Positions 4,393 through 9,513 of a stretch of 64,000 bases of DNA are shown one piece after another. Location of the stretch: contig CAWGMQ010000008.1 of the NCBI GenBank assembly GCA_963823665.1, positions 512,001 to 576,000 of the forward strand. The letters run 5' to 3'. Within the stretch, counting starts at the first letter, position 1, and each line of letters opens with the position of its first letter. Both the position numbers and the translations under genes were made by a program. This DNA comes from an uncultured Planctomycetota bacterium (GTDB lineage Bacteria; Planctomycetota; Planctomycetia; Isosphaerales; Isosphaeraceae). The notes below the pieces were generated by a model, which saw nothing but the letters and a program-made list of their open reading frames with translations, did not search any database and was not told the DNA's origin.

Positions 4393-4571
4393 GATTTGCC
4401 CGCGCCGCGCAAACGAAAATGCCGCTCAGGGGACTGCGAAGCTCCAGCGGAGGGTCACACACGATTGTTGGGCGCGGGTCTCCCGACCCCGCCCTCCTCA
4501 CCAACCGCAGGTCTCCAGCGGGCAGATCCGCCAATCGAAGATCGTCGCAGCAGGTGCACAGGTAAAGATTT

Positions 4572-4715
4572 CAAGACACCCAGCGATTTGGCGAGATTGA
4601 GACAGGCATGGACGGATCACTCGGAGAGAATGGGTGTCTGGATGCGCCTCTTTCTGGCTGCGCCCTTCCCCGCACAGTTTCATCGTTGATTCCCGACGAA
4701 AAGGCGGGTGTCCTG
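4572..4715. repeat. About 130-bp dispersed MITE/REPIN-like element, copy 1
   Basis: Starts caagacaccca and ends cgggtgtcctg (imperfect inverted repeat). Highly similar to 5032-5152 and 9386-9513, with a small internal duplication. Confidence 0.8.
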
Positions 4716-4745: not shown

Positions 4746-5022
4746 AGCCCCGCAGGGGCGAAATCTTAAAGCCCGGCGTGTCAACGCCGGGAATGATGGG
4801 TCCCCACGAAAGAAGCCCAGCCACGCAAGGGGCGACATCATAAAGCCCGGCGTGTTCAACTGCGGGGATGATGGGCCCCAATCAAAGAAGCCCAGCCCCG
4901 CAAGGGGCGAAATCATAAAGCCCGGCGTGTCAACGCCGGGAATGATGGGTCCCCACGAAAGAAGCCCAGCCACGCAAGGGGCGACATCATAAAGCCCGGC
5001 GTGTCAACGCCGGGGATGATGG
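4746..5022. repeat. Tandem array of four ~74-bp double-hairpin REP-like units
   Basis: Each unit carries gcc(c/a)cgca(a)ggggc and cccggcgtgtcaacgccggg hairpins (the latter degenerate in unit 2). The linkers are near-identical rather than unique. Confidence 0.85.
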
Positions 5023-5031
5023 ACGAAGATT

Positions 5032-5152
5032 CAAGACACCCAGCGTTTTGGCGAGTTTGAGGCAGCCATGGATGGACCACTCGGAGAGAATGTGTGTCCG
5101 GCTGCGCCCTTCCCCGCACGGTTTCATCTTTGATTCCCGACGAAAGGGTGGG
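5032..5152. repeat. About 130-bp dispersed element, copy 2 (right end abuts the outer intron 3' end)
   Basis: Aligns with copies 1 and 3 up to gaaagggtggg, where intron sequence begins. Confidence 0.8.
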
Positions 5153-5185
5153 GCCGGGTCGCCTTGGGGGATCGCTCCCCCAAGG

Positions 5186-7605
5186 GCCGGGTAAGGAGGT
5201 GACGTTACCGCCACCCCCTCCCCTCAGAACTGCACGTGAAAGTTTCCCTTCATGCAGCTCAAGCCTTCACGAACGCCCCTCGCAGGACGCGGCCGCTTTC
5301 GTCAGTCGTTCTTGGACATGGATCTGCCGATGACAGTTGGCATGCAACAACTCCAGGTTGTCGGCTGTGCCAGAACCGCCCCGGCTGCGCCAGATGCGAT
5401 GGTGGAGATGCAAGTCTTCCTCTGCGATCCGCAGCGGTTGACCACAGACCACGCATCGTCCCTCTTGTTCCTTCCATAAGTATTCGATCCGACCCCGACC
5501 TGCCAGCGTTTGGCTCAGTTGCCAACCCAGTCGTGCTTCCAGGTACAGTTCCCACTTCGGATCGTAGGGATTCACGTCGCTCCGGATCTTCACATAACGA
5601 ATGATCTTCACTTTGGCTGCTTCCATCAACTGGATCGGCCGGCCTTGGCCTTTCTGGTCAAACAGCGTACCGGTGAAGACCCAGTGGCGGTAACCGTCTT
5701 GCTGGAAGTATTTCTCCTTGATCCACCTCCGGCCTTTGTTCTGGTGCCGTCGTCGACACCAACGCCACAATTTCTGGAAAATCCGGTGATCCACGTACGT
5801 AAAAGTGCGCTTGCTCGCCGCGTAACGGTGGTACATGGTCCAGCCCTTGATCTGCTGATTCAAACGCCAGATCATCTCTCCTGCCGTTAGGCTGCCCGAG
5901 CCGTCGATCGTTTCCTGTATCTTGTTCAAGAACGTCTTCACGTTTCGCAAGGACGGCTTGGTGAACACCTTGCCGCAGCGATAGCGTCGCACATTCTGCC
6001 CCAAGAAATCGAAGCCATCCTCCACATGCGTGATCTGGGTTTTCTCGTGGGAAAGTTCCAAGCCGCGTTCCTTCAAGAAATGAGCCACGAGAGGTTGCAC
6101 TTGGTCACGGAGGAGTTCCTTTGAGATGCCCGTGATCAAGAAGTCATCCGCATAGCGGACCAGGTGGACTTTAAACTTCCGTTGTCGCCCGTGCTTCTCG
6201 GCGAACTGTTCCGCCAACAGCCGTTGCAGTCCATCCAGAGTCCAATTCGCCAGGACGGGTGAAATGATCCCGCCTTGAGGTGTTCCTTCCGTGGTGGCGA
6301 ACCAGGCGTGCTTCTCCAGGAAACCCACTTTCAGCCATTGCCCGAGCAACTGCCGGTCCATGGGGACGTGCGTCAAGAGCCAGTCATGACTGATGCGATC
6401 AAAGCAAGCTTTGATGTCCCCTTCGAGAATCCATGCTGGACCGCTCCGATTACCCAAGACAATATGAGATTGTTCCAGGGCGTCGGCACAACGACGTTCC
6501 AGCCGAAAGCCATAGGAATGGCCGTCGGCTCGAGATTCCGCAATGGGATCGAGGCCTAGCAAGTATAATGCCTGCATGGCTCGATCTGACATGGTGGGAA
6601 TTCCGAGAGGACGTCGCTTGCCGTTGCTTTTGGGAATGTACACCCGGCGGAGCGGTTGCGGTTGGTAACCGTGCCGACGCAGAGTGCTGAAAGCAGCCGA
6701 CTTGGCTTCCGGTGTGTTCCAGAGAACTCCGTCCACACCGGGAGTCTTCGCACCCGAATTACTGATGACTCGCAAAATGGCCAGGGCCCGGCCACTGAAC
6801 GAGTGCGTGAGCAGATAAACCAGAGCCTTGACCTTATTCCATCTGCCCTCCGCAACAGCCTTCACGATACGCGCCTGGAGCCGACGGACTGTGCGCCAGA
6901 CTTTCTTCCATTCGATGGAGTGCCAGTCGGGCGTAAGCTCGGGAGCCGCACCAGCAAGCATTTCTGCCGCCGACATATCTGCTTGTCTCCCTGAGTCGGT
7001 TGGCCAAGGTTCTCTCGTGACGGAACACCTGAGGGAAGTCGGCACCGCTTTCGCGGTGAGGGGATGTCGTCCGTGGGAGGACTCACCCTCTATCCGATCG
7101 ACTACCGAACGGCATTGGCTTGCTCCCTCATCCTCCACCCGCCGCCCCATCGGCGACGCCTTACGACGGTCCTACCCCGAAGGGAGGGCGACGGGCTTAC
7201 CACGTTCCACGGATGAATCACGGATGGTTTAGGCTCTGCCTCTCCGCCGGTGGCTCGGATGACGACGACAGGGGATGGGAAATCCCACTGTACCTGGCCA
7301 CGTACCTTTTTGGTTCAAGCCTCTCAGCGCCTTTGGCTTGTTGGATCTCACGACGTTTATCGGCAGTTCACCTGGATTAGCCATGCCATCCACCCCTGGC
7401 CCCCGACCGCATTGGCGTTCGCAGTCGCCGGATTCCCTCACGGGATATCCAACCACCCGAAGGTGAGGTTACGTTGTCCCAAGAGCTTCGCACGGTCGGA
7501 TTGCTCCGGCCGCACGTCCTGGTAGGGTTCCGGTGGTCGTACATCGGGTTATGTCCTGGTTGCAAATCCAGTCATAACAGACTCATCCGCAGCTTCGTTT
7601 CGCGA
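5186..7605 (-). mobile_element. Group II intron (IIB, chloroplast-like class) encoding an RT/maturase/HNH protein; inner intron of the twintron
   Basis: Domain V gAGCtgcatgaaggGAAActttcACgtgcagttc at 5260-5227. Domain VI ends ...ccttAcccggc at 5186. The 5' end TCGCGaaacgaag at 7605 is fixed by EBS1 TTCCCA (7281-7276) and EBS2 AGATCC (7348-7343) pairing with upstream TGGGAA and GGATCT. Confidence 0.92.
5267..6976 (-). CDS. ltrA: Group II intron reverse transcriptase/maturase with C-terminal HNH endonuclease (569 aa)
   Basis: Motifs [51 protein letters not shown], maturase domain, and CxxC...HHRIW...[13 protein letters not shown] at 6976 has AGGGAG upstream. Confidence 0.95.
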
Positions 7606-8379
7606 TTCCCACAGATCCGGACTTGCCCGTCGAAGAGGCATCCGGCTCGTCACGTTGGGGAATCACTGTCCCTCACACGACTAGGTCGTTTCGCGGTGAC
7701 ACGCTGGTGAGGCACGGTGTCCTAGCGTGGTTCCAACTTCCCATCCACAAGGCGGTGCCCCCTTCGCTCCACAGGGTCCGGAGGGCCGTTCCCCCGCTTC
7801 AACACTACTATGGGGCACTCCGACTCCTTGCCGTCCATCTCGCCGCACTTCGTTTCCTTCGCTTGGCGATACCATCGTTCGTCCCCTGTTCGTCCCCACC
7901 AGCTCGGGACAGAGCTGTGGATCAACCTGGAGTTGGTAAGCCGGTGCGCCAGCCGGCCGTCACGATGGAGACGCCAAGGTCTCCCAAGTTCCCGGGGAAC
8001 CCTTGTGATCATCCGCCATGTTCCTCCGACCCCGGCGTGACCAAGCAGGCTTGAGTGGACCAAGAGTTAGTTGCCTGGCGCGGCCCCCGCGGGCGTCCAA
8101 GACGAGGGCTCACAACGACGAAATTTCGGGGCTCAATCACACAGCGTTTGATCTCGCTGTCTACGCTTCGCAGTGGAGGTCACCCGCCACCACGCAAGAC
8201 TCGCTGCCGGCTGCTGGTCCAGCTTTGCCGGACGGGATTGGTTACCCGCAGAGTTCCGATAAAAGGTTTCACATTTGAGGTGATCCTCCTTTTCCGAGCT
8301 TCTTGGCGCAAGGACGCAGCTAGTTTGGCTACAAGCCTGAGAGTGCTCGGAGACAATCTCCGCCGAGCCGACAAGCGCA

Positions 8380-9371: not shown

Positions 9372-9385
9372 AAAGCCTCGGGATT

Positions 9386-9513
9386 CAAGACACCCAGCGT
9401 TTTGGCGAATTTGAGGCAGCCACGGACGGATCACTCGCAGAGAATGGGTGTCCGGCTGCGCCTTTCCCCGCACGGTCTCATCTTTGGCTCCCGACAAAAG
9501 GGTGGGTATCTTG
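9386..9513. repeat. About 130-bp dispersed element, copy 3
   Basis: caagacaccca ... tgggtatcttg (10/11 inverted match), in the same orientation as copies 1 and 2. Confidence 0.8.

Follow-up and report, generated by a model that had tools for sequence, protein, structure and literature searches.

Within the 64,000-nucleotide (nt) stretch analysed here (hereafter the window), which belongs to an uncultured Planctomycetota bacterium (GenBank assembly GCA_963823665.1, contig CAWGMQ010000008.1, positions 512,001 to 576,000), the minus strand carries a twintron, that is, a complete group II intron lying inside another group II intron. All features of this element are on the minus strand and follow one another, read 5' to 3', as the first part of the outer, or host, intron (8311..7606, comprising domains I to V and then GU GGGAA, whose last 5 nt open domain VI), the complete inner intron (7605..5186, 2420 nt) and the remainder of host domain VI (5185..5153). 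Coordinates are those of the window, numbers preceded by L are locus labels of this analysis, WIN is the window copy, and domains V and VI are abbreviated DV and DVI. Once the insert is removed, the outer intron measures 739 nt (8311..7606 plus 5185..5153) and has no open reading frame (ORF). An initial annotation of this DNA had placed the insertion at the DV/DVI junction of the host; it indeed lies just past DV, although not exactly at the junction but 5 nt inside DVI, past the basal helix strand GGG and two further bases. The twintron lies in intergenic DNA and is preceded, 69 nt away, by the stop codon of a 295-residue ORF without any Pfam match.

The 5' segment of the host intron (7606..8311) starts with UUGCGCC, this end being aligned with that of other copies at TTGCG, and has 44 matches in its own genome. 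Its D1-D4 body (8241-8020) corresponds to the Rfam model RF02005 (group-II-D1D4-6) with 105.3 bits for a cut-off of 49, sibling copies scoring between 97 and 140 bits. Host DV, GAGCCGGAUGCC...GGGCAAGUCCGGAUC (7614..7648), was read from the sequence, as was the host DVI remainder (5153..5185), which displays a 10-bp helix closed by a GCGA loop, a bulged A at 5159 and the 3' end ...ACCCGGC. No Rfam match to host DV (7648-7614) was obtained in the interrupted window copy even at E<5, and no DV/DVI reached the gathering score in 10 loci with host-family copies, uninterrupted ones included; the DV/DVI of this family is therefore atypical. Nonetheless, the uninterrupted DV/DVI of locus L025 aligns with RF00029 from end to end (1-77 of 77); its 33.3 bits do not reach the cut-off of 40 (E = 2.6e-5 in a small search), and one DV pair is non-standard. 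The same stretch folds as two hairpins (z = -4.75). Further support for host DV comes from its eighth pair, where A-U and G-C covary between host variants, while a G.A (7646/7616) occupies the place where group II introns usually show the G.U of the AGC triad. Regarding this position, a copy on the plus strand (L002) has G-C where the host copies L002-L025 otherwise have G.A. The DVI helix is real: 96.3% of its cells are paired over 22 distinct sequences, five of its ten pairs are changed on both sides, and its covariation score was reached by none of 500 shuffles.

The inner intron (5186..7605) starts with UCGCG and ends with UUACCCGGC. Its domain I core (7399..7548) is described by RF02012 (group-II-D1D4-7) over the complete model (1-151 of 151) with 105.5 bits for a cut-off of 34, and its DV (5260-5227) and DVI, at 5262-5186, by RF00029 (1-77 of 77; 63.4 bits, cut-off 40), this being the one canonical DV/DVI that Rfam detects. 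DVI has its bulged A at 5192, 7 nt from the intron's 3' end. The GUGYG consensus expected at the 5' end is not matched by UCGCG, which was treated as a variant terminus and not as a ground for exclusion. Relatives of the inner intron, L048 and L050-L063 among them, start with UUGCG, UUGUG or GUGCG. The host starts with UUGCG, and both introns of the twintron thus show U instead of the usual G.

An intact ORF of 569 residues (5267..6976), placed in domain IV, encodes the protein of the inner intron, with the Pfam domains RVT_N, RVT_1, GIIM (the maturase, or X, domain) and HNH and with the reverse transcriptase (RT) motif YADD retained. It scores 342.6 bits against TIGR04416, the model for group II RT/maturases (cut-off 300), and 605.7 bits over its full length against chain C of PDB entry 6ME0. 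This entry is the protein of the Thermosynechococcus T.el4h intron, to which the inner protein is closest. On the contrary, the host copy of the window lacks an intron-encoded RT/maturase; its family does possess one in siblings such as L025, with 434 residues, 330.2 bits against TIGR04416 and no HNH domain, and this protein reaches just 97.9 bits against 6ME0. Inner and host-family proteins being 34% identical over 228 residues, and the two D1-D4 bodies matching different Rfam models, the sequence comparisons support the assignment of both introns to different lineages.

Two DV hairpins and two DVI ends within 3.2 kb, as the initial annotation had already described and as is observed here (host DV at 7648-7614, inner DV at 5260-5227), might also be displayed by a single intron with duplicated DV/DVI units and alternative 3' splice sites, an arrangement attributed to C.te.I1 of Clostridium tetani in a review (PMC4424553). 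Such an explanation is hardly credible for this locus, where host DV and DVI are separated by an entire further intron possessing a D1 body, a protein, a DV and a DVI of its own, where empty sites exist elsewhere in the genome, and where the insert is a discrete unit found identical at seven places.

These copies and sites were located in the own genome of the window, which comprises 16.46 Mb in 12 contigs. Seven copies of the inner intron are 100% identical over positions 1-2420, and a 182-nt fragment of its 3' end is also present. All seven full copies are flanked by ...CCGGATCTGTGGGA(A/G) upstream and by CC(T/C)... downstream, with the ends reading ...GGGA(A/G)↓TCGCG and ...CCCGGC↓CC (↓ marks the boundary); both ends of the inner intron are thereby fixed to the nucleotide, since the bases outside them differ between the seven copies. 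A host-type DVI stands directly behind all eight inner 3' ends, namely those of the seven full copies and of the fragment. The invaded hosts have segments 100, 91, 72 and 71% identical to that of the window, and their 3' exons differ.

The uninterrupted state is found in L025, whose empty site reads ...CCGGATCTGTGGGAG↓CCTTGGGGGAGCGATCCCCCAAGGCGACCCGGC and whose DVI is identical to that of the window. This bears out the earlier proposal that the element is a twintron in which removal of 5186-7605 restores the DVI of the outer intron. The search for uninterrupted copies of the outer intron, which the initial annotation had suggested, also yielded a second one, L003, and 18 more uninterrupted variant junctions were listed.

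Occupied and empty sites were then compared with the sequence that the inner intron is expected to recognize. Its exon-binding sites (EBS) are perfectly complementary to the intron-binding sites (IBS) contributed by the host: EBS2 (AGAUCC, 7348-7343) pairs 6/6 with IBS2 (GGAUCU, 7618-7613), formed by the last 5 nt of the 3' strand of host DV and the first linker base, and EBS1 (UUCCCA, 7281-7276, in a hairpin loop) pairs 6/6 with IBS1 (UGGGAA, 7611-7606), formed by the last linker base and the 5' strand of the basal helix of host DVI. The 13-nt target that results, GGATCTGTGGGAR (GGATCT-G-TGGGA(A/G)), occurs nine times in the 16.46 Mb, while the reversed control does not occur, and each of the nine occurrences is inside a host DV/DVI: seven are occupied, one is the empty site of L025 and one belongs to a 3' remnant of a host intron. 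A looser pattern detected 27 junction-like sites in the genome, one apparently by chance, which include the unoccupied variants GGATCA..GTGGGAG (14 sites), GGATCA..GTGGGGG (one), GGATCT..GTGGGGG (two) and GGCTCT..GTGGGAG (one). Occupancy therefore amounts to 7/9 for perfect targets and 0/18 for variants with one or two changed bases (Fisher p = 4e-5, a value that is not a true probability because the copies are related).

The assignment of EBS1 and EBS2 made in the initial annotation is reinforced by the relatives of the inner intron. From an alignment of the 5' 470 nt of the 23 relatives in which the 5' region is available, 21 distinct combinations were scored. Pairing with the own exon averages 9.95 of 12 positions versus 4.86 of 12 with the exons of the others (418 cross comparisons, 6% of them reaching at least 10), so that the same columns that give 12/12 pairs in the window track the exons of the 21 distinct relatives, EBS2 covarying with exon positions -13..-8 and EBS1 with -6..-1. 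Examples are L060 (GCAATG with CATTGC, and AACAGA with TCTGTT), L055 (GGCCAA with TTGGCC) and L063 (ATAATT with AATTAT). Poor scores are restricted to two rows, L054 and L080, the 5' end of the former being unaligned.

When one genome per species was scanned, 66 loci encoding relatives were retrieved, 49 of them with a detectable 3' end. The initial annotation had suggested checking the flanks of such homologs for DV/DVI sequences of other introns; four of the 49 (L048, L074, L095 and L105) continue past the inner 3' end straight into a host-type DVI, and all four group with the window intron in a tree. L048 encodes a protein 98% identical to that of the window, its whole twintron being 96% identical over 3170 nt, while L095, L074 and L105 are 5'-truncated or interrupted copies. 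The remaining relatives, with protein identities of 77-89% and ~45-57%, are found in unrelated exons. In the tree, built with the last 556 nt for 35 rows after leaving out 12 loci with an aligned stretch below 450 nt, the five rows with a host DVI (WIN, L048, L074, L095 and L105) form one group that requires a single change (support 84/75; present in 86% of bootstrap trees), and none of 500 label shuffles needed as few changes. Two of these loci, L048 and L095, where the twintron or its 3' part is nearly identical to that of the window, come from metagenome-assembled genomes (MAGs) labelled Actinomycetota and Acidobacteriaceae, in the same series as Planctomycetota MAGs, which may reflect either transfer between phyla or mis-binning. 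L074 (1330-5653) presents a possible third level of nesting, in which a host 5' part is followed by a different type of intron, recognized by RF01999 at 2781-2897 and equipped with a separate DV/DVI at 4585-4660; behind it stand the last 993 nt of an inner-type intron and finally host DVI.

Metagenome contigs were collected with a pattern made of the inner DVI end plus seven degenerate bases of the host hairpin. Among the 46 contigs matched, 39 have a hairpin ending in A(C/T)CCGG(C/T) right behind the inner end (L148 through a stretched match), a count that conveys recurrence and not frequency, because the pattern pre-selects those seven host-hairpin bases. As for the other seven, a hairpin with CACCCGG was recognized by eye in L123 and L131, the contig breaks off there in two, and three have no hairpin. 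The set contains 20 distinct DVI sequences, and over 25 distinct downstream exons were counted on inspection by eye. Two full-length divergent metagenome relatives, L145 and L129, display host DV and GTGGGAG, followed by an inner intron that starts with the canonical GUGCG; they keep EBS2 as AGATCC, with EBS1 as CTCCCA, and the same landing site. The twintron 3' junction was not recovered outside the own genome in a phylum-wide BLAST over 401 genomes, in which at most two candidates were scored per listed genome, too few to be informative.

These observations bear on whether the nested arrangement could be a one-off insertion into a neutral sequence that matched by chance, with no lineage adapted to introns behind it. 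Such an event would be consistent with the distant relatives (77-89% protein identity) that reside in unrelated exons with other EBS, a situation that the initial annotation had named as a reason to abandon its proposal. Homologs of this kind do exist; nonetheless, their EBS covary with their own exons, indicating normal retargeting, and they therefore do not contradict homing into introns. A one-off event is in turn very improbable considering the host DVI behind 8/8 inner 3' ends in the genome, the four other MAG loci that are alike and group with the window intron, the host-type hairpin in 39 of 46 metagenome contigs with many different exons, and the conservation of the same EBS in divergent members. 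The sequences thus support that the inner intron belongs to a lineage of soil bacteria that lands at the same spot of this host intron family.

Mobile group II introns spread through EBS/IBS-guided reverse splicing of their RNA into DNA, endonuclease cleavage and reverse transcription. From the observed anatomy, exact ends, target specificity, EBS/IBS covariation and recurrence in other DNA, we infer that the inner intron has spread in this way. It is very probably an active HNH-bearing intron whose retrohoming is directed to a specific site in another intron family that lacks an endonuclease, with the target chosen by RNA base pairing. EBS2 would pair with the end of the 3' strand of host DV, and EBS1 with the linker and the basal 5' strand of host DVI; the intron RNA would then reverse-splice into the DNA target chosen by this EBS/IBS pairing, 5 nt into host DVI, after which the HNH domain would cut the other strand and the RT would copy the intron RNA. 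A target at DV/DVI would offer a renewable and harmless landing site, since it is kept constant by the function of the host ribozyme and is present in every host copy. The window would hold one of seven such insertions, in this case in an intergenic ORF-less host copy. The adaptation to another class of intron that was proposed initially is hence supported by the host DVI at all eight 3' ends, the seven filled targets of nine, the tree group, L145 and L129, and the divergence between both proteins and between both D1-D4 bodies.

Alternatively, the inner intron might be immobile, its copies having arisen from the spread of the whole twintron through the mobility of the host or from recombination or gene conversion between host copies. 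Several observations are in line with this alternative and weigh against retrohoming of the inner intron. Among the four invaded hosts with an ORF, 2-11 of ~1978 bases differ, an identity of 99.4-99.9%, so that composite spread is possible for these four. An identical 33-nt DVI is found behind the insert in six of the seven invaded hosts. The invaded host L018 (L032; G000 C8:675649-678768) differs from its uninvaded siblings in 28 of 733 columns, eight of which are clustered in the last 57 and cover the DV loop, the target and DVI, its DVI being equal to that of other invaded hosts; this clustering may be due to co-conversion or recombination between host copies, or to target preference. The UCGCG 5' end of the inner intron is non-canonical and could impair branching. 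Also to be set against the retrohoming reading are the pre-selection inherent in the metagenome pattern and the failure to observe the spliced host junction, as described below.

On balance, an immobile inner intron is nonetheless unlikely. Identity among the three invaded hosts without an ORF is only 73-91%, yet each carries a 100% identical 2420-nt insert, and the empty L025 is closer to the occupied L026, from which it differs by one base in ~1978, than occupied hosts are to one another. Identical inserts in diverged hosts, together with the proximity of L025 to L026, point to separate recent insertions into hosts that were already dispersed. Moreover, the EBS/IBS match is perfect and is kept in divergent relatives, and no variant target is occupied. 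Retrohoming of the inner intron is thus preferred as the explanation of its spread.

Regarding splicing, the DVI helix and the branch-point A are cut off by the insert from host DV and the DVI base, and the host ribozyme should accordingly have no activity before excision of the inner intron. The outer intron would then splice only after removal of the inner one, the host ribozyme staying disabled until that moment. By analogy with the 'zombie' twintrons, in which the outer intron splices with the insert looped out (PMC7049729), the host might possibly splice in the same manner. The joint across 5185/7606 was not seen in three metatranscriptome runs and one DNA run, whose contigs are short and derive mostly from relatives with 90-99% identity, making the result uninformative: a 352-nt RNA contig extends 23 nt past the 5' junction, below the 31 needed, and a 1333-nt contig from a relative contains the inner 3' end and host DVI and is then unlike the window.

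Nested introns and homing into introns are already known, but not, in the literature covered here, with a landing site in DV/DVI. The closest parallel is given by the twintrons of Thermosynechococcus elongatus, in which TeI3 (F3) introns lie inside TeI4 (F1) introns (Mohr, Ghanem & Lambowitz 2010, PMC2882425). Both systems share identical inner copies within diverged outer ones, the intergenic arrangement, and the argument for separate insertions, which was also drawn there from identical inserts in diverged hosts (Mohr et al., PMC2882425). On the contrary, the T. elongatus inner intron is ORF-less, related to its host and situated in domain IV, with a start codon of the host ORF on either side (PMC2882425), whereas the inner intron of the window carries an RT/HNH protein, belongs to another lineage than its host and lands within the ribozyme core, where DV ends and DVI has its base. 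A further likeness lies in the window inner protein itself, a close relative, with its 605.7 bits, of the T.el4h protein in 6ME0.

In Methanosarcina acetivorans, introns reportedly homed into related intron ORFs and formed nested arrays up to five deep, to judge by a title of Dai and Zimmerly from 2003. Nested group II introns of this organism, and the perpetual homing site that homing into introns provides, are mentioned in a review (PMC4424553). The window differs from them in that its target is a ribozyme element of an unrelated class, a third level being hinted at solely in L074. Another bacterial twintron, in Trichodesmium erythraeum, consists of two ORF-bearing IIB-type introns, with sequential splicing announced in the title (Pfreundt & Hess 2015, PMC4649490); in contrast with the inner intron described here, it constitutes a single case with the inner intron in host domain I, and nothing in that work (PMC4649490) points to a lineage directed at this position.

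Euglenid plastid twintrons also have an inner intron that interrupts a core domain of the outer one, with inner-first splicing expected. In psbF the inner intron reportedly lies in domain V. The euglenid introns are, however, degenerate and organellar, and their descriptions present neither a demonstrated homing lineage nor a recurrent DV/DVI site defined by EBS. These descriptions go back to Copertino & Hallick (1991), as cited in PMC4424553 and PMC7049729. In the part of the literature covered here, which includes few subscription journals, no lineage was found described as landing in the DV/DVI core of another class of introns.

Published intron-in-intron homing in bacteria makes use of host domain IV or of the host ORF, which are dispensable for catalysis. 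Since the lineage described here targets the last part of DV together with the base of DVI, the inner element necessarily splits the catalytic and branch-point domains of its host. It thus provides a natural system, with many host variants and with empty and filled sites, for asking whether the two introns must splice one after the other, whether a selfish element can turn a second one on and off, and what share of target choice rests on 13 base pairs. Automated intron surveys drop nested introns (PMC4028801 and PMC8919778) and would therefore miss lineages of this kind.

A bolder possibility, considered doubtful at present, is that the inner intron represents a lineage living obligately in introns, an 'intron of introns', and at odds with its host family; it would make use of the DV/DVI core as the only sequence that the host could not readily alter, and would silence splicing and mobility of the host until its own excision. 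Host copies may escape through the one free target base (U to A in the linker, in 15 uninvaded copies), and the parasite may rewrite the flanking DV loop and DVI upon insertion, as the clustered differences of L018 might hint.

As a separate observation on the host junctions, A replaces U at the first linker base (target position -8) in 15 of them (G000 C3, C5, C6, C10 and C11), and none of the 15 is invaded. The change is not established as host resistance: L129 is invaded despite a mismatch there, and the 14 copies of the GTGGGAG type may represent a recent burst of a single subfamily. The frame of the host protein is shifted or shortened in all four invaded ORF-containing hosts (L022, L023, L024 and L026), where the longest frames have 399, 308, 399 and 474 residues and other C-termini, and is intact in the empty L025; either decay or homopolymer errors of the assembly could account for it.

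The 5' flanks and the arrangement of host copies show some additional features. The window host and L002 have the 5' flanks ...GCGTCC↓ (8312-8320) and ...GCCATCC↓, respectively, while other copies of their subfamily have ...CAGACA↓, and the truncated inner fragment in L038 abuts ...GCCATCC↓. Host introns also occur in tandem, with two copies 59 nt apart (G000 C10:1458546-1460001), and clustered in repeat arrays (C11, C6).

Repeats are likewise found in the vicinity of the twintron. A tandem array of 3.7 copies of a 74-nt unit (4746-5022, minus strand) is located ~130 nt downstream of the twintron 3' end, and its units match the Acido-Lenti-1 RNA family with 50.4 and 43.0 bits for a cut-off of 37, a third unit reaching 33.5 bits. 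A further repeat on the same strand, containing CTGGGTGTCT↓TGAA, is present in three copies (4570-4583, 5030-5043 and 9384-9397), with 0.28 expected by chance. It resembles the 5'-exon motif GGTGGGTGTCT↓ of an abundant host-intron subfamily, and these three copies may be empty targets of host introns.

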